Source of the DNA: a virus
UHGV virus genome: UHGV-1705587
Strand: one strand, 5' to 3'
DNA length: 20,116 bases
The number at the start of each line of letters is the position of its first letter. Position 1 is the first letter of the stretch. Under the pieces are notes generated by a model, which saw only the letters and a list, made by a program, of their open reading frames with translations, was not told the DNA's origin and made no database searches. Shown here one piece after another: positions 677-18,914 of the stretch. The translations under genes and the position numbers were made by a program.

Positions 677-2299
677 ATGCCGTTACCATTTCCCTTCGAT
701 TTTAAACATCCTGATTACCAGATGGTTTTTGAATGGCGGATGGAGCGCTTACAGCGCATTCGCCAGAACCCTGAAATGCTGCCAGCGCTAAAGCAGTTTT
801 ATCGCACCAACCCGGCACAGTTCATCATCGACTGGGGTATGACTACTGACCCGCGTAACATCGATTATGGCCTGCCGGTCACCATCCCTTTTCTGCTGTT
901 CCCGAAACAGGAAGAGTGGATTCACTGGATCATGGAGCGGCGCGAACGGCTGGAGAACGGCATCACCGAAAAGAGCCGCGAAATGGGGCTCAGCTGGACG
1001 GCGATCGGGCTGGCCTGTTCGCTCTGCCTCTTCAACAAAGAAATGGTCATCGGCTTCGGCTCCCGTAAAGAGGAATACGTCGACAGCACCGGTGACCCGA
1101 AGGCGCTGTTCTGGAAGGCGCGCAAGTTCGTGGAAACGCTGCCCGTCGAGTTTCGCGGTTCGTGGGACGAGAAGAAGCACGCGCCGTACATGCGCGTTGA
1201 GTTTCCAGATACTGGCGCGGTTATCAAAGGCGAGGCTGGCGACAATATCGGACGTGGTGACCGTACCACGCTCTACCTGGTGGATGAAGCTGCATTCCTC
1301 CAGCGTCCTCTGTTGATTGATGCGGCGCTGTCGCAAACCACCCGTTGCCGTATTGACCTGAGCTCGGTTAATGGCATGGCGAACCCGTTCGCGCAGAAGC
1401 GTCACGGCGGGAAGATACCGGTATTCACATTCCACTGGCGGGATGATCCTCGCAAGGATGAAGAGTGGTATCGCAGGGAGTGCGAGAAAATCGACAATCC
1501 GGTGGTGGTGGCGCAGGAACTTGACCTGAACTACAGCGCATCTGCGGAAGGCGTCCTGATCCCGTCCGACTGGGTACAGGCTGCCGTCGACGCGCATATT
1601 AAGCTGGGCATCCAGCCAACGGGCAAACGCCTGGGCGCGATGGACGTCGCCGACGAAGGCCGGGACAAAAACGCCTTTTCGACCCGTCACGGCTTCCTCC
1701 TGGAGAACGTGCGTGAATGGTCCGGCGTTGGCAGCGACATTTACCAGTCTGTTGAGAAGGTCTTCGGCTTTTGCGAACAGGACAACCTCGAAGAGTTTCG
1801 CTTCGACGAGGACGGCCTGGGTGCTGGCGTTCGCGGCGATGCGCGCGCCATCAACGAACTGCGTTACGCAGCGCGCCGACCGTCAATACTCGCCACACCG
1901 TTTCGTGGTAGCGGCGCGGTATTTGATCCGGACGATGAAGCGGTGCGCGGGGACAACGGACAGGCCGCACGCCTGAACAAGGACTTCTTCGCCAACGCCA
2001 AGGCCCAGAGCTGGTGGTGGCTACGCAAGCTTTTCCAGAACACCTATCGCGCCGTGGTTGAGGGCATGGCCTACAACCCGGACGAAATCATCTCAATCAG
2101 CAGCGCCATGGCGAGCAAAGACAAACTCATCATTGAGCTGTCGCAGCCGACCTACTCCATTAATGGCGTGGGGAAAATCGTTGTTGATAAACAGCCTGAT
2201 GGCACCAAGTCGCCGAACCTCTCCGACTCGGTGATGATCAGCTACGCGCCAATGAATTCAGCCCTGAACATCTGGGAGCTGCTAGGGAGACAGGCCTGA
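677..2299 (+). CDS. Phage terminase large subunit (ATPase/nuclease)
   Basis: 540-aa ORF. Deviant Walker A of terminase type ([13 protein letters not shown], a K-S-R-x-x-G-x-S pattern) and Walker B-like LYLVDEAAF. Sits between the small terminase and portal genes; stop overlaps the portal start (TGATG). Confidence 0.8.
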
Positions 2300-3768
2300 T
2301 GGCACGAAACAAGCAATCCTCTCAGCGAACGGCACAGGCCACCGCTGACGGCTACGAGAACTTCGTCGCCCGCGTTGGGATGCAGACGCCTAACCAGCAT
2401 TCAGCATCGACCTACCGGGCGAACTTCACCAGCCGCAACCGCATGCTGGTGGAATGGTCATATCGCGGTTCGTGGGTTATCGGTGAAGCGGTCGACGCTA
2501 TCCCGGACGATATGACCCGAAAGGGCATTCGCATCACTTCGGAGATTGACGCCAAAGACCGTGGCACCCTCGAAGCGCAACTGGATGAGTTGCAGATCTG
2601 GGATGCGCTGAACGACGTGCTGAAATGGTCGCGTCTCTACGGCGGCGCGGTCGGCTTCATCATGATCGAGGGGCAAGCACCAATGACCCCGCTGCGACTC
2701 GAAACCATTGGCGAGGGCAAGTTTAAGGGCATTCTCCCGCTCGACCGCTGGATGATTAACCCGGTGCTGACACGCCGCATTAAAGAGATGGGGCCGGACC
2801 TCGGCAAGCCTGAGTTTTACGACGTGGTGACCACCGCAACGGGCATTCCGGCCTGGCGCATCCATCACAGCCGCCTGATCCGCTTTGATGGCGTCACGCT
2901 GCCATTCCAGCAGAAGATGACCGAAAACGAATGGGGAATGTCGGTTGTAGAGCGTATCTGGGATCGGCTTACTGCGTTCGATAGCGCCACTGTCGGCGCG
3001 GCGCAGCTGGTCTATAAAGCGCATCTGCGTACCTATAGCGTGGAGAAGTTGCGCGAGCTTATCGCGCTTGGAGGCCCGGCGTTCGAAGCGTTGCTGAAGA
3101 ACATCGACCTGATCCGCCAGTTCCAGAGCAATGAAGGTATGACGCTCATGGACTCGCGGGATAAGTTCGAAACCCACCAGTACAGCTTTAGTGGTCTGGA
3201 TGACATTCTTTCGCAGTTTGCTGAGCAGATCAGCGGTGCCGTTGGTATCCCGCTGGTACGCCTGTTCGGTCAATCCCCGAAAGGCTTCTCTACTGGTGAT
3301 GCAGACCTCGCCAACTATTACGACCGGGTGAGCTCATTGCAGGAGCGCCGCTTACGGCTGCCGATGCGCCGGATACTGGACATTATGCACCGCTCGGAAC
3401 TCGGAAAGCCGCTGCCGGACGATTTCACGTTTGAGTTTAACCCGCTATGGCAAATGTCAGACGTTGACCGATCAACGGTGGCCGTAAACACCACCAACGC
3501 GATCAGTACCGCGCTGGGCGACGGATTGATGACGCGTAAGGCGGCGATGACCGACCTGCGCGAAAACTCTGACGTCACCGGCATCGGGGCATCCATTACC
3601 GACGAGGATATCGAGAATGCCGAAGACGAAGCGCCGCCAGGCATCGGCGAACTTGGCGACAAACCGCCAGAGCCGCCAGGCGGAGATCCGATATCGAACG
3701 AGCCTACGGCAGATAGCGCGGGCGGTCGGGGATATCGTAAATGGTCGCTACGATGGTTCAAACGATAG
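2299..3768 (+). CDS. Phage portal protein
   Basis: 489-aa ORF immediately after the terminase large subunit with start/stop overlap; size and position typical of a portal. The C-terminal roughly 50 codons overlap the next ORF in another frame, so the true C-terminus is uncertain. Confidence 0.7.
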   Translation: MARNKQSSQRTAQATADGYENFVARVGMQTPNQHSASTYRANFTSRNRMLVEWSYRGSWVIGEAVDAIPDDMTRKGIRITSEIDAKDRGTLEAQLDELQIWDALNDVLKWSRLYGGAVGFIMIEGQAPMTPLRLETIGEGKFKGILPLDRWMINPVLTRRIKEMGPDLGKPEFYDVVTTATGIPAWRIHHSRLIRFDGVTLPFQQKMTENEWGMSVVERIWDRLTAFDSATVGAAQLVYKAHLRTYSVEKLRELIALGGPAFEALLKNIDLIRQFQSNEGMTLMDSRDKFETHQYSFSGLDDILSQFAEQISGAVGIPLVRLFGQSPKGFSTGDADLANYYDRVSSLQERRLRLPMRRILDIMHRSELGKPLPDDFTFEFNPLWQMSDVDRSTVAVNTTNAISTALGDGLMTRKAAMTDLRENSDVTGIGASITDEDIENAEDEAPPGIGELGDKPPEPPGGDPISNEPTADSAGGRGYRKWSLRWFKR

Positions 3769-4390
3769 CGTCACCGAAATAATGGATGCGCTGGAGCGCT
3801 ACAGCGAAATCATCACCCCCTGGGCGACGAAGGTTGCTGAGAACTTCACCGCAGACATAGCGCGCCAGAATGAAAAGCAGTGGCGTCAGCACAGCCGGAA
3901 CATCAGCGCAGAGCTGCGCAACATGGTTGACCGCGCCCCGGTAGGCCAGGTGATGAAATCCATCGTTGACGAGCAAATTAAGTACATTAAATCGCTGCCT
4001 CTTGAGGCCGCCGATCGGGTGTATGACATTCAGAACAAAGCCATCGAGGCTGTTGTGACTGGTGGCCGCGCTGAGCCATTCGCGAAAGAGATAGCTGCTT
4101 CCGGTGACGTGTCACGCTCACGAGCGAACCTTATCGCCCGGACTGAGCTTGGGCGCGCAACCGGTGCACTGGATCAGGCGCGTGCGCTGTCAATCGGCTC
4201 GAATGGTTATATCTGGCGTACAGCCGAAGATGGCGACGTCCGGCATTCTCATCGAGAGATGGAAGGGAAGTTTGTCGAATGGGGCCGACCTCCAACGCTT
4301 GACGGCATGACCGGTCACGCTGGCGAGCTCCCGAACTGCCGCTGTTACAAAGAAATCGTCTTCCCCAACCCTCATTCTTATCTCGCCTGA
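3617..4390 (+). CDS. Head morphogenesis protein, phage Mu gpF / SPP1 gp7 family
   Basis: C-terminal region YIWRTAEDGDVRHSHREMEGKFVEWGRPP...GELPNCRCY matches the conserved core of Mu F-like minor head proteins (W-T-D-RVR-SH ... NCRC). The longest-ORF start at 3617 overlaps the portal by 152 nt; an alternative ATG at 3782 lies 14 nt past the portal stop. Start uncertain. Confidence 0.7.
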   Translation: MPKTKRRQASANLATNRQSRQAEIRYRTSLRQIARAVGDIVNGRYDGSNDSVTEIMDALERYSEIITPWATKVAENFTADIARQNEKQWRQHSRNISAELRNMVDRAPVGQVMKSIVDEQIKYIKSLPLEAADRVYDIQNKAIEAVVTGGRAEPFAKEIAASGDVSRSRANLIARTELGRATGALDQARALSIGSNGYIWRTAEDGDVRHSHREMEGKFVEWGRPPTLDGMTGHAGELPNCRCYKEIVFPNPHSYLA

Positions 4391-9391: not shown

Positions 9392-10552
9392 ATGACGCAG
9401 GGCTTACCTGTATCCAACGTTGTAAACGTTGATGTGATCATCTCGCCGAAAGCGGCTACTGGTCGTAACTTCGGCGCACTGCTGATCCTCGGTTCTTCCA
9501 CTGTCATTCCGGTGCAGGAGCGCGTTCGCCTTTATGCGTCCGTTGATGACATTGGCGAGGACTTCGGAGTCGACAGCCCGGAATATGAAGCGGCGCAGGT
9601 TTTCTTCAGCCAGTCGCCGAAGCCGACGCAGGTTTATGTTGGCCGCTGGGCGAAGACGCTGACCTCTTCCGAAGGTGGAAGCGTGGAAACCATCGTGCAA
9701 GCTGTTAATGCCTGCCTGCAGTATACCAACTGGTATGGGCTGGTTGTCGCTGATGATGTTGCTGATGGCGATGATGTGCTTGATGCTGACGACGTGATTG
9801 AGGTTGCTAAACTCATCGAAGCGTCCAGCCTGAGCCGCATTTTCGGGGTAACGTCAGCCGACGCTGAGATCATCAGCACGACTTCGACGACCGATGTTGC
9901 GTCTAAATTAAAGGCCGGTAAGTATTCCCGTACCTTTATTCAATATTCCACCAGCAGCCCTTATGCGGCGGTTTCAGCTTTCGGTCGCGCGTTTACTGTC
10001 AATTTCAACGGCAGCAATACCACCATTACCCTGAAATTCAAACAGGAACCGAGCGTAACCTACGAAACGCTGACGGTAGGACAGGCGGCGGCTGTGGATG
10101 CGAAGAATGCGAACGTGTTCGTGTACTACGCCAACGACACGGCGATCCTGCAACAGGGTGTCATGGCGAACGGTGACTTCTTCGACGAGCGCCACGGGCT
10201 CGACTGGTTGCAGAACTACGTTCAGACCAACCTCTATAACCTGCTTTACACCAGCACCACCAAAATTCCGCAGACTGATGCCGGTGTGACCCGTCTGCTT
10301 TCCAACGTTGAACAGTCCATGGATCAGTCCGTCACGAACGGTCTGGTAGCGGCTGGCGTGTGGAATGGTGGCCCTATCGGACAGCTGAATTCCGGCGATA
10401 CGCTGACCAAAGGCTATTACGTGTATGCGCAACCGCTGTCCGAACAGGCGCAGGCCGACCGCGAAGCGCGCAAAGCACCGTTAATCCAGGTGGCCTGTAA
10501 GCTGGCTGGCGCAGTTCATTATGCCGATGTGCAGATCAACGTGGTTCGCTAA
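9392..10552 (+). CDS. Tail sheath protein (contractile tail)
   Basis: 386-aa ORF with GGAG RBS, directly upstream of a 146-aa tube-like gene, a chaperone and the tape measure gene: the sheath-tube-chaperone-tape measure order of contractile-tail phages (P2 FI-FII-E-T-like). Confidence 0.6.
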
Positions 10553-11432: not shown

Positions 11433-11620
11433 CCTTCAATAGCCTGCCGGGCGGTGAAGATTTTATTCTTCGTCCGGCGCTTGCCTTCCATATTGACCAG
11501 AAAGACCTTAACAGCGGTGCGGTAGACCTCTGCCGCATCGCGCTTCTCAATGACTACCTCGACATGCGCGAGGATAACGACGCCCGGGTAGATAAATGGA
11601 GAGCGGACAATGAGCGGTAA
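11387..11620 (+). CDS. Predicted -1 frameshift extension of the tail assembly chaperone (P2 E+E'-like); fused product spans 11007-11620
   Basis: The -1 frame is open with no stop from the slippery site T_TTT_TTG (11381-11387) to TAA at 11618-11620, filling the gap and overlapping the tape measure start by 11 nt. Predicted extension: ARTPYQRDAHPASGITFNSLPGGEDFILRPALAFHIDQKDLNSGAVDLCRIALLNDYLDMREDNDARVDKWRADNER. Fused product about 204 aa. Confidence 0.55.
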   Translation, partial: ARTPYQRDAHPASGITFNSLPGGEDFILRPALAFHIDQKDLNSGAVDLCRIALLNDYLDMREDNDARVDKWRADNER

Positions 11621-13877
11621 CGCAGATACGATTAAAGATTTCCTTGTTTCGCTGGGATTCGATATCGATCAGGCTGGCGCTAATAAGTTTGAAGCCGTGC
11701 TGAAAGGCGTTACAGCTAACGTTCTGAAGGTCGGCGCGGTGGTGGAAGGCGCAGCGCTGAGCATTGTCGGATTTACCACTCAGATCGCGAACGGTCTGGA
11801 TAAAATTTACTGGGCATCCCAGCGGACGGGGGCCAGTGTCCAGGGCATCAAAGCGCTGGGATACGCCGCATCGCAAACCGGTGCCAGCGCCGAGTCGGCT
11901 ATGTCCTCCCTCGAAGGGCTGGCCGGTTTCATGCGTAGCAATCCGGGGGCGGAAGGCTTCCTGAACCGTCTTGGTGTCCAGACCCGAGATGCCAGCGGAA
12001 AGATGCGTGATACTGCGGCCATCTTTACTGGCGTTGGGCAAAAGCTCAACAACATGCCGTATTACCGCGCGAAGCAATACGCGCAGATGCTTGGCATCGA
12101 TGAAAACACGCTGATGGCGATGCGGCGCGGCATGAATGGCTTTACCGCCGATTACCAGTCTATGCTGCAAAAGACAGGGTTCAACGCTGATAAGGCGGCT
12201 GTGCAGTCCAATAAATTCATGACGTCCATGCGCGGGCTTACGTCGCTGTTCGGCATTATGCGGGACAAGATCGGCTCAAACCTCGCTGGTGGTCTTGCTG
12301 GTTCGCTGGACAGCCTGCGGCGGCGCATCCTCGACAACTTCCCGAAGATTGAAGAGACGCTGACCAGAGTTATTAAAGGCGTGATCTGGCTTGCGAACGC
12401 CTTCACGCGAATGGCGTGGCGGCTCATACAGGGCGCTGGCTCTGTCATTGACTGGTGGAAGCGTCTTGACGATGGCAGTAAAAATCTGCTGAAAATATTC
12501 GGTGCTCTACTTGTCGCATGGCGTCTGCTTAATTCTGCGTTCCTGAAATCCCCGATTGGAATTATCACCACGCTGATTCTGGCGATCGGATTACTCTATG
12601 ACGATTATCAGACGTGGAAAGAAGGCGGTAAAAGCCTGATTGACTGGTCCAAGTGGGAGCCTGCAATAGAAAAGGCGAAAAAGGCAATTCTCTGGCTGCG
12701 CGATAAGCTTCTGGGGCTGAAAGATTCTGTTGGTGGATGGCAGAACTCGCTGGAAATTTTGGCTACTTTCATCGCTGGGGTATGGGTAACAAAAGTATTG
12801 GGAGCATTCGCAAAAATATCCGGTCTTCCGATACCTCCATGGCTTAAATTATGGGGAGCGTATGCTGGTTACCTGGTTTCAGATCGTGAAAACATAAAAG
12901 CCAGTGCTAAATCATCTTTGGACTATACCAAAAGGAACATTGGTGATGCTCTTGCTACGGTTGGCATCAAAACCGACCTTGGGCGAAAAGATGTTAGCGA
13001 GGTAAGAGAATGGCCCGCATGGATGGATTGGCTGCATGGTGGCCCAGGTAAGATTATTCGTCAGGCGCAAAGCAATGGCGTCGTTTATGGCGATAATGTT
13101 CAGCCTGACATTCCCGGGGCGGAACAGCATGTTCGTAGTAATGAAATTGCCCCGCATGAAAGAGATGAAATAAAAAACCGTCAGCAGGCTGCTAATGGTT
13201 ATCTTGAAAAAATCTCAGACGGGATTGCCAAAATCGGTAATTTATTTTTCTCCCCGGCTGGAGCTGCTGAAATCTCTCCAAATATATCGGGTGACCCCTC
13301 CCAGTTTGCGCAATCAGTCAAACGTCCACAGGCCACAGCCCAGGGCAAAGTATTGCTCGACTGGATGGGGCCAATGTTCAATAAACTTGAGTCGCTTTAT
13401 CAACTTCCAGCTGGTCTATTGAAAAGTGTGGCGATAACCGAGTCAGGTGGTAACCAGTTCGCCATGTCCGGCGCGGGTGCAAAGGGGCTGTTCCAGTTCA
13501 TGGATGGCACGGCGCGAGACATGGGCCTGCGTGGTAACGATGTGTTCGACCCGGAAAAGTCAGCTCAGGCAGCCGCTAAGTACCTTAGCCAGCTATTGCG
13601 GCAGAACGGCGGAGACCTTAGCAAAGCACTTGCATCATATAACTGGGGAATCGGGAACGTTCAACGTTATGGAATGGGGCTAATGCCGCAGGAAACGCGC
13701 AATTACATTCCGAAAGTAATGAGCAATATGCCCACCAGCGCCCCGGTGATTCAGCAGGAAACGAACATTAACATCCACGGCGTTTCCGATCCTCGCGAAG
13801 CTGCCCGTTTGACTGTTGACCGTCAAAAGGGTGTGAATTCACAGTTAACCCAGCAACTCCCCGCAGGACCGAGATAA
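11610..13877 (+). CDS. Tail tape measure protein with C-terminal lytic transglycosylase (SLT) domain
   Basis: 755-aa ORF with GGAGAG RBS, after the chaperone/frameshift region. Two hydrophobic segments (LLKIFGALLVAWRLLNSAFLKSPIGIITTLILAIGLLY and LEILATFIAGVWVTKVLGAFAKI). C-terminal region has SLT catalytic signatures ESGGN...GAKGLFQF...YNWG (about nt 13390-13700). Confidence 0.8.
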   Translation: MSGNADTIKDFLVSLGFDIDQAGANKFEAVLKGVTANVLKVGAVVEGAALSIVGFTTQIANGLDKIYWASQRTGASVQGIKALGYAASQTGASAESAMSSLEGLAGFMRSNPGAEGFLNRLGVQTRDASGKMRDTAAIFTGVGQKLNNMPYYRAKQYAQMLGIDENTLMAMRRGMNGFTADYQSMLQKTGFNADKAAVQSNKFMTSMRGLTSLFGIMRDKIGSNLAGGLAGSLDSLRRRILDNFPKIEETLTRVIKGVIWLANAFTRMAWRLIQGAGSVIDWWKRLDDGSKNLLKIFGALLVAWRLLNSAFLKSPIGIITTLILAIGLLYDDYQTWKEGGKSLIDWSKWEPAIEKAKKAILWLRDKLLGLKDSVGGWQNSLEILATFIAGVWVTKVLGAFAKISGLPIPPWLKLWGAYAGYLVSDRENIKASAKSSLDYTKRNIGDALATVGIKTDLGRKDVSEVREWPAWMDWLHGGPGKIIRQAQSNGVVYGDNVQPDIPGAEQHVRSNEIAPHERDEIKNRQQAANGYLEKISDGIAKIGNLFFSPAGAAEISPNISGDPSQFAQSVKRPQATAQGKVLLDWMGPMFNKLESLYQLPAGLLKSVAITESGGNQFAMSGAGAKGLFQFMDGTARDMGLRGNDVFDPEKSAQAAAKYLSQLLRQNGGDLSKALASYNWGIGNVQRYGMGLMPQETRNYIPKVMSNMPTSAPVIQQETNINIHGVSDPREAARLTVDRQKGVNSQLTQQLPAGPR

Positions 13878-14479
13878 TGGATATTTTATCAGCGATTTTT
13901 CGCCAGCAATCACGGCGAATTGGCCTGCTGATCCCCAGCGTGGTCGTTTCCGAAAAGCATTCTGATGCGCTCGAAATTACTGAGCACCCGGTGGAGAAGC
14001 CAACAACGAATAGCGCCTCGGGTTTCATCGCCGATCATGCGTATAAGCGCCCCAGCGAAGTCACAATGGAATGCGGCTTCGCTGGGGGCGGTTCGTTGCT
14101 GGACTTCATTGATACATCTTCAATCGGCCTCAGCGCCGGACTGAGCCCGAAAGAGACCTATCAGCAACTGCTGGATCTCCAGTCCTCCCGGATGCCGTTC
14201 GATGTGGTGACCGGGAAGCGGGTGTACAGCAATATGCTGGTGAGAGCCATCGAGGTGACAACGGACAAAACCAGCGAGAACGTGCTGAACTGCACGCTTA
14301 CCCTGCGTGAAGTGATCATGTCGCAAACGCAGAGCGTTAGCGTTGCTGATAAATCAGATATGCAGGATGGCGTCAGCACATCGGCGGTGCAAAATTCCGG
14401 GACGAAATCCACTACACCGCCAAACGAATCTTTGCTGAGCCAGCTGGGCGGAAGCGTTACATCAGCATTCGGGGGATGA
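13877..14479 (+). CDS. Hypothetical tail protein (P2 gpU-like position)
   Basis: 200-aa ORF; start overlaps the tape measure stop (TAATG). Position equivalent to P2 gpU; no diagnostic motif. Confidence 0.45.
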   Translation: MDILSAIFRQQSRRIGLLIPSVVVSEKHSDALEITEHPVEKPTTNSASGFIADHAYKRPSEVTMECGFAGGGSLLDFIDTSSIGLSAGLSPKETYQQLLDLQSSRMPFDVVTGKRVYSNMLVRAIEVTTDKTSENVLNCTLTLREVIMSQTQSVSVADKSDMQDGVSTSAVQNSGTKSTTPPNESLLSQLGGSVTSAFGG

Positions 14480-14480
14480 T

Positions 14481-14786
14481 ATGCAGTTTAACGAAATACC
14501 GCTTTCTCCTGACAATCAGCAGTTCCGCGTTTTGCTGGGCAATACTACGTATACGCTCAGGATCATCTGGCGCGATGCGGCTGGTTGGATTATGGACGTG
14601 ATGGATAGCGGCGGTGCCGCGCTTCTCTCTGGCGTACCTCTACTGACCGGCGTGAACCTTTTACGACAATTTCCACAGCTTGGCATTGATGGTGCGCTGG
14701 TGGTGGCGACCGATAAGGGCGCACCAGACGAGCCCACCAAAACCAACCTCGGCACATACAGCCACCTCATTTTCGTGCAGGAGTAG
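14481..14786 (+). CDS. Hypothetical small tail/baseplate protein (P2 gpX-like position)
   Basis: 101-aa ORF with GGGGGA RBS between the gpU-like and hub-like genes. Confidence 0.45.
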   Translation: MQFNEIPLSPDNQQFRVLLGNTTYTLRIIWRDAAGWIMDVMDSGGAALLSGVPLLTGVNLLRQFPQLGIDGALVVATDKGAPDEPTKTNLGTYSHLIFVQE

Positions 14787-14788
14787 AA

Positions 14789-15853
14789 ATGTCTCTTAAC
14801 TGGATGCGCCATTTTGAGTTGCAGCTGTTGGACCAGAACGGGCAGGGTATTTCCCTGTCTGATTTTAAGGTCACGTTCCAGATCGAGTGGGCAGATACAC
14901 GCTGGCCGCGCGTGGCAAACGTGAAAATTTACAACCTTTCGACCGATACCACGAACAAGATACTGGGGCAGGAGTTTGCAAAAATTCGCATCATTGCCGG
15001 GTATGACGGTATTGCGCCGGATGTTGATGCGAGCCAGGTTGGTGTCGCCCGGGAGATTTCACCAGACCAGGTAGGGCAGGTGAACGGTCAGAACTACGGC
15101 CTGATATTTGACGGTGATATTCGCTTCACCGTCACCGGGAAGGACAACATCACCGATTCCTGGGTGCTGATTCAGGCCATCAGTAACCACGAAGCGTTCC
15201 TCTACGCGACTACCATCACCACGCTTGCCGCTGGCTATACCGTTGCGGATCTGCACCGGGCGACGATGCAGGATTTCAACGCGTTCGGCGTGACACAGGG
15301 CATTACCGGCGATTTTCCTGATACCGTGTTTCCTCGTGGCCGCGCGATTTACTCATCCAGCCGCAACGTGATGGATAATATTGCTGCGCAGTGCAAAGCG
15401 ACATGGCAACTGGTGGATGGTCAGGTCCAGATGGTGCCGGAGGATAAATATATTCACGAAGCCATTGTGTTGAATGCCAATACTGGCCTGATCGGTATGC
15501 CGCAACAAACGATGGGCGGCGGAGTAAACGTGCGGTGCCTGATAAACCCAAACATCCGTATTAATGGTCTTATCCAGCTCGATCAGGCTTCGGTGTACCG
15601 CGCCACGCTCGGCAAGAGCGAAATAGCACAGTCGCCCGGGCGTATCACCGAAACAGAAGAGAACGGCAACCGTGTGCTGACCGGCACGACGTCACAGGCT
15701 GCCAGCATTGCGACGGATGGCGTTTATATCGTCAAAGCTATCGACTATACTGGCGACACCAGAGGTCAGGCGTGGTACATGGATTTGATGTGTTTTGCGC
15801 GTGGTGCTCGTGAAATGGTTAGTCAGGACACGCTTAAAAAATGGCAGGTATAA
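14789..15853 (+). CDS. Baseplate hub protein (P2 gpD / late control D-like)
   Basis: 354-aa ORF with AGGAG RBS, last gene of the FI-FII-E-T-U-D-like block. Size and position match a hub protein. Confidence 0.55.
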   Translation: MSLNWMRHFELQLLDQNGQGISLSDFKVTFQIEWADTRWPRVANVKIYNLSTDTTNKILGQEFAKIRIIAGYDGIAPDVDASQVGVAREISPDQVGQVNGQNYGLIFDGDIRFTVTGKDNITDSWVLIQAISNHEAFLYATTITTLAAGYTVADLHRATMQDFNAFGVTQGITGDFPDTVFPRGRAIYSSSRNVMDNIAAQCKATWQLVDGQVQMVPEDKYIHEAIVLNANTGLIGMPQQTMGGGVNVRCLINPNIRINGLIQLDQASVYRATLGKSEIAQSPGRITETEENGNRVLTGTTSQAASIATDGVYIVKAIDYTGDTRGQAWYMDLMCFARGAREMVSQDTLKKWQV

Positions 15854-15854
15854 G

Positions 15855-16205
15855 ATGGGTAAGGCCAAACTTCTAATTTGTGGTGTTCTTTTATCAGTTG
15901 TCGGCACGTCAGAGGCCTTAGCTGATACTCAGTGCGGGCCGTATCGCCTCACTGCGGGCAAAGAAGGACTAATGCTTATTAACGGGGTAAAACCTGAAAC
16001 GCAAAAAATGTCTTTTCTCAAGTCTAAAGATGACTACCAAAACATGAAAGCAGAATGGATGGTTGCAACCGACCAACCCGGCCGCTGGGTTGGGCTTGAG
16101 TACATCAAGCGCAACGGCAAAGCCATTCTCAACGCACAGTGGTTGCAAGCCAGCATGGATTCGCCGCGTCAGTATGCAACATACGACTGCGTAAAAATTA
16201 AATAA
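15855..16205 (+). CDS. Moron gene A: small Sec-secreted (periplasmic) protein of unknown function
   Basis: 116-aa ORF starting 1 nt after the hub stop (the longest ORF from 15795 would overlap the hub gene). N-terminus MGKAKLLICGVLLSVVGTSEALA-DTQ looks like a signal peptide with an AxA cleavage site. Mature protein about 93 aa with two Cys (one near each end). About 47% GC by hand count versus 55-60% in flanking phage genes. Confidence 0.55.
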   Translation: MGKAKLLICGVLLSVVGTSEALADTQCGPYRLTAGKEGLMLINGVKPETQKMSFLKSKDDYQNMKAEWMVATDQPGRWVGLEYIKRNGKAILNAQWLQASMDSPRQYATYDCVKIK

Positions 16206-16216
16206 GCGACTCATCT

Positions 16217-16447
16217 ATGAAGATAACTATTTTTTCTGATGATCATGTCCAGTCAGTTGATGCCCCTGATGGAACTTTAAGCTGGACCATGCTGAACTCT
16301 GATGGCTCCAAATCAGAGGCTAAAGTAGAAATGTATGAATATCGAGAATTATCGGTTCATAAATTCTGTTATATCGCTCGCTTTAGGGACGTTGAAATTA
16401 GTGAGATGCGACATGCCGCTGTTAAACATGGCTATGACGTAAATTAG
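16217..16447 (+). CDS. Moron gene B: small cytoplasmic protein of unknown function
   Basis: 76-aa ORF 11 nt after gene A, no signal peptide, weak RBS. About 39% GC by hand count, the most AT-rich coding segment in the window. Followed by a 176-bp AT-rich spacer and an intrinsic terminator. Confidence 0.45.
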   Translation: MKITIFSDDHVQSVDAPDGTLSWTMLNSDGSKSEAKVEMYEYRELSVHKFCYIARFRDVEISEMRHAAVKHGYDVN

Positions 16448-16585
16448 TGCAATATTAGGATCGCAGAGAGCAGATTTTTTGATTATCATTTATTTGAGCA
16501 TTTGACTGGGTGTTATACACCAAGCGCCACCCGAAAGGGGAAAGGGAGACGATAAGCCGTTTCAGGTTAAATGCTCACATCTCAT

Positions 16586-16612
16586 AAGGTCGCCATTGTG
16601 CGGCCTTTTTTT
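16586..16612 (+). terminator. Rho-independent terminator downstream of the moron cassette
   Basis: Stem GGUCGC (16588-16593) pairs with GCGGCC (16600-16605), one G-U wobble, 6-nt loop, optionally extended by two A-U pairs, followed by T7 at 16606-16612. Located 11 nt upstream of the spike gene ATG. Confidence 0.5.
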
Positions 16613-16623
16613 ATGGGGTTTTT

Positions 16624-17361
16624 ATGCCAATTCCAACTCAATCACAGATCGGCGGAGAGCAGCAGACCGCGCAGGCCATAGCCGATTCGGTGTCTACCCA
16701 GATGCGCGTAGCGATGCCCGGCATCATTCAGTCGTTCGATCCTGATACTGTTACCTGCACGGTAGAGGTGGCGCTACGCGGTATTGTTGGCGACGGCTCC
16801 ACCGAATTAAAACCGCTGGTGGATGTGCCGGTTATCTTCCCGCGCGGTGGCGGTTGCACACTGACCTTTCCGGTTAAAGAAGGCGACGAGTGCCTGCTGA
16901 TCTTTGCCGACCGTTGCATCGATTTCTGGTGGCAGAGCGGCGGCGTTCAGGAGACCGTCGACCCGCGTCAGCATGATTTATCGGATGCGTTCGCCATCGT
17001 TGGCCCGCAGTCGCAAGCACAAAAAATCGGTGGAATCAGTACCGGAGCAACGCAGCTGCGCAGCGACGATGGGAGCACGTATTTTGAGCTCAACCCCACC
17101 ACGCAGAAAATTAAAATTGTAGCGCCAGGCGGCCTGGATGTTATCGCGCCTGAATCGACATTCTCAGCGAAGGTAACGATTACCGGTCTACTCACCTGGA
17201 TGGGGGGGATGGTCGGCAGTCTTGCCAGCGGAACAGCGGCGAAAATTACTGGTGCGATTGAATTCTTTGGGACGCTTAAATCTAACGGTAAATCTATTGA
17301 TGACACGCACACCCACAAAGGCGTTCAGACGGGTAGCGGCAATTCTGGTGGGGTAAACTGA
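16624..17361 (+). CDS. Baseplate central spike / baseplate assembly protein V-like
   Basis: 245-aa ORF, first gene of a V-W-J-I-H-like block. Gly-rich C-terminus with an HTH (His-x-His) motif (nt 17308-17316), reminiscent of the metal-binding apex of gpV-type spikes. Confidence 0.55.
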   Translation: MPIPTQSQIGGEQQTAQAIADSVSTQMRVAMPGIIQSFDPDTVTCTVEVALRGIVGDGSTELKPLVDVPVIFPRGGGCTLTFPVKEGDECLLIFADRCIDFWWQSGGVQETVDPRQHDLSDAFAIVGPQSQAQKIGGISTGATQLRSDDGSTYFELNPTTQKIKIVAPGGLDVIAPESTFSAKVTITGLLTWMGGMVGSLASGTAAKITGAIEFFGTLKSNGKSIDDTHTHKGVQTGSGNSGGVN

Positions 17362-17714
17362 TGCGATACCGACGAGAAGATGCTGACGGCGATTACACTT
17401 TCGGGCAGGGTGACGACACCTTCCTTATCGACAGCCCGGAGTGTGTCGCCCAGGCCGTAAAAACCCGTTTCGAGCTGTGGCGCGGTCAGTGGTTTCTCGA
17501 TCTGACGGAAGGCACGCCGTATGTTCAGTCGGTGCTTGGTAAACAGCGATCTGACGTCTACATCCTGGCTATACGTGAACGCATACAGGACACACCGGGC
17601 GTTCTGTCGATTCTTTCCTTCGATACCAATTATGACGGCACCAGCCGTCGCGTCACCTTCACTTCCTCCATTGACACAATCTACGGCCAGACGACTGTAA
17701 CAAGCGAGGCATAA
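17361..17714 (+). CDS. Baseplate wedge protein (P2 gpW / T4 gp25 / Mu gp46-like)
   Basis: 117-aa ORF; start overlaps the upstream stop (TGATG). Size and position between spike and J-like genes match the gpW/gp25 family. Confidence 0.55.
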   Translation: MRYRREDADGDYTFGQGDDTFLIDSPECVAQAVKTRFELWRGQWFLDLTEGTPYVQSVLGKQRSDVYILAIRERIQDTPGVLSILSFDTNYDGTSRRVTFTSSIDTIYGQTTVTSEA

Positions 17715-18914
17715 ATGGCTTTGAACCTCGACACGCTGGGGCTATCGGCAACGGTAACCGCCCAGGGGATTAGTGCGCCTGATTACCAGACAATCCTAGA
17801 TACACTGACCAGCTATTTCAGGCAGATTTACGGTAGTGATGCCTACCTCGAACCAGACAGCAAAGACGGGCAGATGGTCGCGCTGGTGGCTCTTGCCGTG
17901 CATGACGCTAACAACACCGCTATCGAGATTTACAACTCGTTTTCACCGACGACAGCGCAGGCCGCAGCGCTTAGCAGCAATGTGAAAATTAACGGGATCA
18001 CGCGAAAAGTAGCGACAAACTCTACTGCTGACCTTCTGTTAACCGGTACGGCAGGCACGACTATCACGAATGGCTCCGCACGGGATAAAAACGGCATTAT
18101 CTGGAATTTTCCCGCAAGTGTAGCGATCGGCGTTGATGGTACTGTGCTGGTGACGGCCACATGTGCGAATAGCGGTTCGGTTGCTGCGATGGCCGGGACT
18201 ATCACCACCATTAATACACCGACTCGCGGCTGGGTGTCGGTAACCAACCCGGCTGCGGCTACTGTCGGATCACCAGCTGAAACCGACGCAGAGCTGCGCA
18301 TTCGGCAGGGGCAAAGCGTCGCGCTACCATCGATCACACCGTTTGAAGGTGTCGACGGTGCAATAGCTAACGTTGCTGGCGTGACACGTCACAAGTTGTA
18401 TGAGAACGACACAGGAACAACAGACAGCAACGGGCTGCCGCCGCACTCAATTTCCGCCATCGTCGATGGTGGGGATGTTACCGAAATAGCCCAGACCATC
18501 AGGGGGAATAAAGGACAGGGAACGGCAACCTACGGGACAACTTCTGTCACGGTGCCGGATACTTATGGTAATCCTCACGTCATCAGTTTTTCGCGCTCTA
18601 CCGACGTACCGATTTTCGTAGCCATTACCCTGAAAGTTTTTACCGGGTATACCTCTCAAATCGGCGAGCAGATTAAACAGGCTGTTGCCGATTATATAAA
18701 TGGCCTAACAATTGGCGACGACGTTCTGCTGAGCCGTATTTATTCCCCGGCAAACCTCGGCGTTGTGAGCGGCGGGAATGCCCGCTATTACGATATTACC
18801 GACCTGCTGATCGGTAAGTCGTCTGGCAGCGTATCGGCATCAAACATTGATATTGCCTATGATGCTTCTGCGTCCTGTAGCACCGCGAATATCAGTATCA
18901 CGGTGACCTCATGA
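17715..18914 (+). CDS. Baseplate J-like protein (P2 gpJ / Mu gp47 family)
   Basis: 399-aa ORF with GAGG RBS. Contains ETDAELRIRQ, resembling the conserved acidic-Arg motif of Baseplate_J proteins. Follows the W-like gene as in P2. Confidence 0.65.
   Translation: MALNLDTLGLSATVTAQGISAPDYQTILDTLTSYFRQIYGSDAYLEPDSKDGQMVALVALAVHDANNTAIEIYNSFSPTTAQAAALSSNVKINGITRKVATNSTADLLLTGTAGTTITNGSARDKNGIIWNFPASVAIGVDGTVLVTATCANSGSVAAMAGTITTINTPTRGWVSVTNPAAATVGSPAETDAELRIRQGQSVALPSITPFEGVDGAIANVAGVTRHKLYENDTGTTDSNGLPPHSISAIVDGGDVTEIAQTIRGNKGQGTATYGTTSVTVPDTYGNPHVISFSRSTDVPIFVAITLKVFTGYTSQIGEQIKQAVADYINGLTIGDDVLLSRIYSPANLGVVSGGNARYYDITDLLIGKSSGSVSASNIDIAYDASASCSTANISITVTS

Follow-up and report, generated by a model that had tools for sequence, protein, structure and literature searches.

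Introduction

Two small disulfide-bonded envelope proteins provide precedents for how a phage can block re-infection of its host, namely Spackle of phage T4 (PMC7677548) and Llp of phage T5 (PMC9586334). Spackle (gp61.3) is periplasmic, has a 75-residue mature form with one disulfide and inhibits the tail lysozyme (PMC7677548, PMC7650644). Llp is a small lipoprotein in which a disulfide constrains the termini and which jams FhuA from the periplasmic side; its gene adjoins that of the receptor-binding protein pb5, and it has been proposed to prevent non-productive adsorption (PMC9586334). Here, we analyse Gene A, which is found at positions 15855–16205 of a 20,116-nucleotide stretch of virus genome UHGV-1705587 (the window in what follows) and lies directly behind a baseplate hub gene in the late region of a temperate myophage.

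On sequence evidence, Gene A is a real, conserved prophage gene whose product is almost certainly exported. In all probability this product is an accessory protein of the moron type and not a building block of the virion. That it protects the cell against other phages through periplasmic superinfection exclusion is a possibility that we advance tentatively, on indirect evidence. The account in which export, a disulfide-linked barrel, accessory status and phage protection are combined is the best explanation that we can offer, and it falls somewhat short of being probable. Gene A thus represents an uncharacterized family within a well known kind, the exported accessory proteins of temperate phages, for which the moron concept of HK97 and lambda, the definition of Hendrix and colleagues and the examples lom, bor and HK97 gp15 form the background.

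The features of the gene and its immediate surroundings are as follows.

14789–15853, + strand: baseplate hub, 354 residues, matching phrog_196 (baseplate hub) with E 1.7e-84
15846–15849, + strand: Shine–Dalgarno-like AGGT, 6 nt 5′ of the ATG, as read from the sequence
15855–16205, + strand: Gene A, with its ATG at 15855, its stop codon at 16203–16205 and a 116-residue product
15855–15923, + strand: signal peptide of 23 residues, MGKAKLLICGVLLSVVGTSEALA, with predicted type I cleavage after Ala23
15924–16205, + strand: mature domain of 93 residues and stop codon, predicted to be an eight-stranded up-and-down β-barrel

Comparison with Spackle, Llp and Cor

Like Spackle, Gene A encodes a small phage protein with an export signal, one disulfide and a periplasmic location, which in the case of Gene A are predicted features. 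Spackle acts at the envelope-penetration step of a contractile tail. Nevertheless, the two proteins share no sequence similarity, and Spackle is an α-helical bundle whereas Gene A is predicted to be a β-barrel. In agreement with this, the searches with Gene A gave no sequence or fold match to Spackle (PDB entry 6X6O) and the model of Gene A is all-β. The gene for Spackle belongs to the early genes of a virulent phage and, in contrast to Gene A, has no hub gene beside it. Its target, the gp5 lysozyme, has no counterpart in the spike of the present phage, where the wall-degrading domain is instead found on the tape-measure protein.

Gene A further resembles Llp and Cor (of phages T1, phi80 and N15), which are also small exported phage proteins encoded in the tail gene region. 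Both block re-infection from the periplasmic side, and the disulfide of Llp constrains the termini of the protein as we infer for that of Gene A. Llp and Cor are, however, lipoproteins with a lipidated Cys1, while Gene A has no lipobox (ALA/DTQC, the slash marking the cleavage site), and the Llp gene lies next to a receptor-binding protein gene and its product targets FhuA, while Gene A lies between hub and spike. Using [LVI][ASTVI][GAS]C with the cysteine at +1 of the mature chain as the lipobox definition, a lipoprotein identity was rejected for both candidate cysteines: Cys10 is preceded by Leu-Leu-Ile, with a disallowed isoleucine at −1, and Cys27 is at +4 relative to the cleavage site. 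The likeness to Cor and Llp that the original prediction had put forward does not extend to family level, as there is no lipobox, no Pfam or PHROG match apart from phrog_3443, and no neighbouring receptor-binding protein gene. Gene A thus follows the logic of Spackle and Llp, yet differs from them in fold, sequence, lipid anchor and gene position, and is a member of neither family.

Gene A encodes a conserved protein with an export signal

The product of Gene A reads MGKAKLLICGVLLSVVGTSEALA/DTQCGPY...YDCVKIK, with the slash at the predicted cleavage site. Lys3 and Lys5 make up its positive n-region, LLICGVLLSVVG forms an h-region with a top 9-residue Kyte–Doolittle mean of 2.9, and the c-region has alanines at both −3 and −1 (A-L-A/D). 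These are the elements that rule-based assignment looks for in a Sec-dependent, type I-cleaved signal peptide (a positively charged n-region, a hydrophobic core of 7–15 residues and small residues at −3 and −1), and the call combines these rules with comparative evidence. Among 78 distinct members of the family, 77 have a hydrophobic core, 74 have a lysine or arginine near the N-terminus and 76 have a small-x-small site at most eight residues before the first cysteine; the mature domain contains exactly two cysteines in all 78. Mean column identity over the same members is 0.37 in the signal region compared with 0.68–0.89 in the mature domain. The signal region is therefore variable in sequence but constant in character, which is the typical mark of a genuine signal peptide. 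Cleavage is likely to occur after Ala23 (−1), which like Asp24 (+1) is retained in at least 90% of the 61 sequences of alignment A2.

The ATG of Gene A is located 1 nt past the stop codon of the hub (TAA, 15851–15853), and the junction AGGTATAAGATG is seen again in close alleles. In every resolved junction, the start of Gene A falls between −4 and +9 nt from the hub stop. An alternative start at 15795, which the original prediction had allowed for and had read as an ATG, was rejected: the sequence at this position is TTG, and relatives do not conserve the extension. Many alleles have an in-frame stop 0–3 codons before the start of the signal peptide, and hence an extension to 15795 cannot be the conserved start. 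The pairwise dN/dS of the mature part is about 0.10–0.12, which is in the same range as for the neighbouring structural genes; this purifying selection on the annotated frame indicates that Gene A is a real gene.

In other respects the original prediction holds well. Its coordinates and the start 1 nt after the hub stop are correct, and a tight coupling to the hub gene is found wherever the junction is resolved. It had proposed a signal peptide with an AxA site, and the n-, h- and c-regions are indeed present, in a plan shared by 74–77 of the 78 relatives. Likewise, the mature protein of 93 residues with one cysteine near each end agrees with invariant cysteines at mature positions 4 and 89, and the wider picture of a small exported protein with a conserved cysteine pair is upheld by the 78-member family.

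The mature domain is predicted to be a disulfide-linked β-barrel

The two cysteines are Cys27 (codon 15933–15935, mature position 4) and Cys112 (codon 16188–16190, mature position 89). Both are invariant in alignments A1–A3, and across the whole family only these two cysteines and one leucine are invariant. Most differences between members fall in the signal peptide and the N-terminal half of the mature chain, and conservation over the last 46 residues is 0.89.

The AlphaFold2 model, calculated from 61 sequences, has a mean pLDDT of 83, with means for 10-residue blocks of 83–94 from residue 21 onwards. It contains eight strands (residues 25–27, 30–34, 40–42, 49–54, 63–71, 77–86, 89–98 and 107–114); Cys27 belongs to the first of these and Cys112 to the last. 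As strands 1 and 8 adjoin in the closed barrel, a Cys27–Cys112 disulfide that joins both ends of the domain is plausible.

In general fold and size, the domain is similar to the eight-stranded barrels of the avidin/streptavidin type (calycin superfamily), and bacterial avidins are secreted as well. The model has the eight-stranded up-and-down barrel that is expected for the avidin family, and one of its β-hairpins aligns in register with avidin: WVGLEYIKRNGKAILNAQWL (16080–16150, residues 76–98) resembles FTGQCFIDRNGKEVLKTMWL of chicken avidin on the same barrel strands. This hairpin likeness is not statistically significant and may be due to convergence. Membership of the avidin family was nevertheless rejected. 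The likeness in fold is loose (6–8% identity, Foldseek E 0.16, TM 0.45–0.49), and PF01382 is not matched in Pfam by Gene A or, at E ≤ 10, by any of 18 diverse family members. In a profile search of the PDB, each avidin domain scored about 12 bits (E ∼0.8), with a lone E of 0.0036 for a dual-chain avidin that extends over two weak stretches, and hhalign against avidin gave a probability of 50% over 36 columns. What remains is a resemblance in fold.

A barrel of this kind could in principle bind a small ligand, so that Gene A would increase the fitness of the lysogen by capturing, for example, a vitamin, a lipid or a signal molecule, with no relation to exclusion. We consider this improbable, in view of the weak similarity to avidin. 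The family-wide invariance of just two cysteines and one leucine leaves no conserved ligand-binding residues, and a ligand-binding role would not explain why unrelated exported proteins replace Gene A at its position, as described below.

In a library of viral structures, the best match is a 'lipoprotein' of Serratia phage Scapp (E 0.078, TM 0.44). This match was dropped because the corresponding coding sequence was not identifiable in the Scapp gene table and it provided nothing informative.

The family is narrow and enterobacterial

Gene A matches phrog_3443, a family of 'unknown function', with E 1.7e-45 and 154 bits, residues 6–116 aligning to positions 5–114 of the 115-position profile. 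No model of NCBIfam release 20 matched at E ≤ 0.1. A protein with 75% identity in the same slot of an E. coli prophage (WP_042043841.1) is named 'STY1065/STY2022 family phage-derived protein' in RefSeq, a name that probably comes from a rule or model outside this NCBIfam release. The literature that was searched says nothing of STY1065 or STY2022 as names for such a protein and contains no specific account of an exported protein encoded next to a hub gene, and relatives of Gene A are labelled 'hypothetical' or 'secreted protein' in public sources. An Rfam scan of 15500–16800 gave only sub-threshold chance matches.

We found 70 relatives in a search of 5.8 billion proteins, and only 57 were recovered at E ≤ 0.001 when 1.84 billion cluster representatives were searched exhaustively with a profile. 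The family is narrow and enterobacterial, and it occurs in prophages of E. coli, Salmonella, Klebsiella, Citrobacter, Enterobacter, Serratia and Yersinia. The loci of distant relatives were located by exact-protein look-ups. Some of these relatives are single chromosomal genes outside any phage, in Erwinia/Mixta-type genomes (L087 6001–6327, L089 6001–6339 and L086 6001–6342): cls/yciY and yciI/tonB flank one of them, another is close to tsx, and a third is found some 1.4 kb away from an Hcp gene.

Gene A occupies a slot for exported proteins behind the hub

The window comprises the late region of the phage, which encodes, in this order, terminase, portal, protease, capsid, sheath (9392–10552) and tube, followed by the tape-measure protein. 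The genes on both sides of the hub and Gene A are the following.

11610–13877: tape-measure protein, with a C-terminal lytic transglycosylase (SLT) domain at residues ∼585–710
13877–14479: Dit-like protein
14481–14786: plug
16624–17361, + strand: baseplate spike, 245 residues, PF18352 spike N-terminal domain (E 1.4e-41) with an Apex motif, and TIGR01644 phage_P2_V (E 3.1e-09)
17361–17714: sheath-initiator/W-like protein
17715–18914: J-like wedge protein

The match of the hub to PF22759 (E217_GP41) scores 26.6 bits, slightly below the cut-off of 27 bits. The spike is the first late gene beyond the accessory slot. The placement of the SLT domain puts the wall-degrading activity of this type of tail on the tape measure and not on the spike. 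Elsewhere in the window, a 257-residue open reading frame (ORF; 3617–4390) overlaps the 3′ end of the portal ORF (2299–3768) by about 150 nt in a different frame.

Among the loci that were found via Gene A itself (80 from IMG/VR and two E. coli prophages), Gene A directly follows the hub in all 82, and the gap from Gene A to the spike ranges from 62 to 1714 bp. To avoid circularity, a second set was collected using only the hub, with one genome per species, which gave 63 evaluable loci. A family member is present right after the hub in 53 of these. The same layout is seen in Salmonella phage SEN34 (Brunovirus), Klebsiella phage Mulock and E. coli phage vB_EcoM-683R1, at 32–40% identity. The seven hub-anchored loci that have no family member are those with the most distant hubs (43–48% identity), and in six of them the spike follows the hub after about 50–120 bp with nothing in between. 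These seven related tails show that tail and baseplate can be built without Gene A.

In the remaining three hub-anchored loci, the first slot after the hub holds another exported protein.

L099, 5068–6207: lipoprotein of 379 residues
L103: protein of 182 residues with a Sec signal
L115, 5071–5811: lipoprotein-like protein of 246 residues

By eye, the C-terminal domain of the L099 protein is similar to the L115 protein and its N-terminal domain is similar to the extra domain of P0072, which is one of the lipoprotein-fused versions of Gene A that occupy the same slot (L083 6001–6879, a true lipoprotein fusion with LSGC). These different occupants indicate that the position immediately behind the hub is set aside for exported proteins, which come from differing families and domain combinations. 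What is noteworthy about Gene A is its near-fixed position next to the hub and the fact that the first slot always seems to encode an exported protein.

Comparison by eye also shows that the slot lipoproteins P0072, L096 5099–5989, L109 5075–5941 and those of L099 and L115 consist of shuffled domains. They come as an N-domain of about 170 residues followed by the Gene A barrel, as a similar N-domain followed by a different C-domain, or as that C-domain alone; none of them has a family annotation. In the chromosome of Serratia aquatilis (L128 5092–7745), the hub is followed by five tandem paralogues of Gene A, one of them frameshifted, after which an IS256-family transposase truncates the prophage.

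An array of paralogues could also point to a protein that confers immunity against, or acts as a decoy for, an attack on the envelope that does not come from a phage, such as a tailocin, a bacteriocin or a type VI effector. Allelic diversity and the predicted periplasmic location would be in agreement with this, as would the distant relative near the Hcp gene. That neighbourhood is nevertheless a single, anecdotal case, the other chromosomal relatives lie among housekeeping genes, and no toxin partner accompanies Gene A in any of about 150 loci, which together make such a role quite improbable.

Alleles are exchanged independently of the tail genes

Pairwise identities among the structural genes correlate with each other (r = 0.52–0.88). 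For Gene A the correlation with these genes is r = 0.19–0.32, and it reaches r = 0.42 with the adjacent C-terminal half of the hub. We looked for a co-varying partner among the SLT domain, the Dit-like protein, the plug, the hub, the spike and the W-like and J-like proteins, and no partner emerged, as only this physically adjacent hub C-terminus correlates with Gene A. Gene A is the most diverse gene of the block (mean identity 0.79), and nearly identical baseplates are accompanied by alleles that are merely 60–65% identical to each other. Differing 3′ ends of the hub go together with differing alleles, the last hub codons forming the left edge of the cassette. For most pairs of alleles, synonymous sites are saturated and dN/dS is low, which indicates that the alleles are old and have been exchanged as cassettes with a left breakpoint in these last hub codons. 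The sequences thus strongly support Gene A as an independently exchanged accessory gene.

The fixed place within the baseplate gene block would in itself be compatible with a role in baseplate assembly or structure, and the possibility to extend the ORF upstream to TTG 15795 with an annotation artefact in which the true start lies elsewhere. Both versions are largely refuted and we consider them extremely improbable. A cleaved Sec signal peptide, as predicted, would remove the protein from the cytoplasm, where tails assemble, the seven related tails lack the gene altogether and the divergence of Gene A is decoupled from that of the structural genes. The in-frame stops directly before the start in many alleles and the purifying selection on the annotated frame argue against a different start.

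Moron-like signals around Gene A

Three elements frame Gene A and the slot behind it.

15723–15751, + strand: candidate σ70 promoter in the 3′ end of the hub, ∼100 nt upstream of Gene A, with −35 TTTATA, a 17-nt spacer and −10 TATACT
16217–16447, + strand: gene B, a 76-residue orphan cargo gene outside the Gene A family
16586–16612, + strand: intrinsic terminator from a terminator scan, AAGGTCGCC-ATTG-TGCGGCCTT followed by T7, 11 nt before the ATG of the spike

The third positions of hub codons Tyr313 (TAT), Lys316 (AAA) and Thr321 (ACT) are 93–94% conserved in 133 distinct hub sequences, a level that is reached by only 4% of 261 degenerate hub sites. TATACT is present in all three loci with another exported slot protein and absent from all seven loci with an empty slot, a distribution that is confounded by phylogeny. 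More broadly, synonymous conservation is raised over 15716–15790 (hub codons 310–333), where it reaches up to 94% compared with a gene mean of 70%; this stretch may contain an embedded promoter or another element that acts at the nucleotide level.

In 123 of 141 loci, the 60 nt that precede the spike start contain a perfect, GC-rich hairpin with a stem of 5 bp or more and a run of at least five T residues behind it, and the terminator lies 11–25 nt before the spike start across loci. At least four versions of the stem occur that differ by compensatory double changes (CCCGC/GCGGG, CCAGC/GCTGG, GCCGC/GCGGC and CCCAC/GTGGG). The terminator is absent where the spike directly follows the hub or Gene A. 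It closes the whole slot and not Gene A alone, and forms the right edge of the accessory unit. Because it is located inside the late operon of the tail, expression of the spike and wedge genes would require antitermination or read-through.

Between Gene A and the spike (16206–16623 in the window) there is a cargo hotspot of variable content. In nearly identical prophages it contains a Phd/Doc toxin–antitoxin pair, a DUF4236 protein, a HEPN protein with a 260-residue partner, or unknowns (for example L001 3434–4254, L115 5991–7155 and L002 3291–4069). Gene B, the cargo of the present phage, has only nine related clusters among 5.8 billion proteins, is absent from all 80 Gene A loci in IMG/VR, and has no match in Pfam, NCBIfam, PHROG or PADLOC. 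The GC content is about 55% in the flanks, with a range of 51–58% in the hub and spike genes, and drops to 45–50% in Gene A and 37–38% in gene B.

The Gene A unit thus shows presence and absence in syntenic relatives, a distinct base composition and its own terminator, which are properties by which morons are recognized. Extra insertion between late genes, lower GC content, a terminator at the end and patchy presence are all moron-like, and a promoter of its own, for which there is a candidate, would add to these. In contrast to a classical moron, Gene A is carried by nearly all members of its clade (53 of 63 loci) and its translation is coupled to that of the hub, which makes it less free-standing; the truly variable slot lies just downstream. 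Overall, the arrangement of a candidate promoter, genes and a terminator inside a late operon suggests a moron layout.

The same junctions allow a different reading, in which Gene A is a helper of the late phase that is made only together with the tail genes and, once exported just ahead of lysis, works on the envelope while the cell is dying. By masking a receptor or an entry component, it might keep progeny from being lost to debris or to cells that are already infected, following the 'lytic conversion' logic of T5, or it might tune lysis. The start of Gene A within −4 to +9 nt of the hub stop in all resolved junctions would suit this role, as would the six loci in which the spike directly follows Gene A with no terminator, the candidate status of the internal promoter, and the proposal that Llp prevents non-productive adsorption (PMC9586334). 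On the other hand, the −10-like hexamer that is conserved at synonymous sites and the near-universal terminator point to an autonomous unit, the adjacent cargo (Phd/Doc, HEPN) is of a kind that is expressed from prophages, and the chromosomal singleton relatives have no late operon. A purely late role is therefore unlikely, although it deserves more weight than the other alternatives. Late co-expression with the tail genes may be the older mode, as the sub-clade without a terminator suggests.

A possible role in superinfection exclusion

In the mechanism that we propose, Gene A would be exported by the Sec pathway and lose its signal peptide, leaving a 93-residue eight-stranded β-barrel in the periplasm with one disulfide that ties both ends of the barrel together. 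It would be made along with the late tail genes through translational coupling to the hub gene and probably also alone, from the candidate promoter in the 3′ end of the hub to the terminator before the spike, and would be expressed in the lysogen. Its most likely job would be to guard the cell, whether lysogenic or already infected, against further attack by phages. To this end it may bind either a component of the host envelope or a part of the incoming tail, such as the tip of the spike or the tape-measure protein with its lytic transglycosylase, and thereby block penetration of the envelope or entry of the DNA.

A protective periplasmic factor best explains why an exported product is combined with polymorphic alleles, with analogous exported proteins that can take its place, with an array of paralogues and with a location beside defence cargo and the puncturing device. 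The shuffling of alleles, the replacement in the slot, the five paralogues, the adjacent defence and toxin–antitoxin cargo and the moron-like signals all lend indirect support to a role in some form of conflict.

Several observations weigh against this proposal. Gene A has no match in Pfam, NCBIfam or PADLOC and no homology to any exclusion protein. The existence of chromosomal relatives in Erwinia and Mixta suggests that the function may not depend on a phage. The C-terminal half is nearly invariant (0.89), unlike a surface in a fast arms race. The promoter matches 9 of 12 consensus positions, which is not above chance (one found compared with 1.7 expected), and the conservation of its −10-like element is confounded with an invariant hub peptide and with phylogeny. 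In the sub-clade of L130, L134, L135, L137, L139 and L140, Gene A is followed by the spike with no terminator, giving the look of a plain late operon. Finally, the alleles do not co-vary with the spike (r = 0.24) or the SLT domain (r = 0.25) of their own phage.

This last point argues against a simple self-directed lock-and-key inhibitor, which would be expected to co-vary with the entry machinery of its own phage. As a further alternative, Gene A could be a periplasmic inhibitor of a cell-wall-degrading enzyme, similar to Spackle or to the lysozyme inhibitors MliC/PliC, with the SLT domain as its target. The tape-measure protein (11610–13877) does provide such a domain, in line with RefSeq and Pfam annotation, and MliC/PliC are in general likewise built as eight-stranded barrels with a single disulfide. 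The combined profile and close fold match that would place Gene A with MliC/PliC (PF09864) is not found. Spackle offers a parallel as a small, periplasmic, disulfide-bonded inhibitor of a tail lysozyme (PMC7677548). Taken together, such an inhibitor is doubtful, and slightly less so than a ligand-binding barrel. For superinfection exclusion, a conserved target in the host would fit both the nearly invariant C-terminal half and the existence of chromosomal relatives.

Implications for the family

Blocks of phage entry in the periplasm are among the least understood layers of resistance, with few known mechanisms (Spackle, Llp/Cor, Sim and Imm). In the most far-reaching version of our proposal, which we regard as speculative and rather unlikely as a whole, Gene A would be the founder of an uncharacterized class of periplasmic β-barrel gatekeepers. 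These would be kept beside the hub in Brunovirus-like temperate myophages, exchanged as cassettes and sometimes lipid-anchored or arrayed, with each allele jamming the entry of different contractile-tail phages, and the first slot would be a dedicated locus for exported exclusion proteins of several unrelated families.

The family is small, soluble and easily expressed, and has many natural alleles beside near-identical tails, which makes it a ready system for mapping specificity. If exclusion proves to be false, a plausible candidate would be removed and a late-phase or ligand-binding role would be indicated. If it proves to be true, the host range of phages used in therapy against clinically important Enterobacterales would be affected, and the hub–spike junction would be a predictable site at which to find new exclusion and defence genes.

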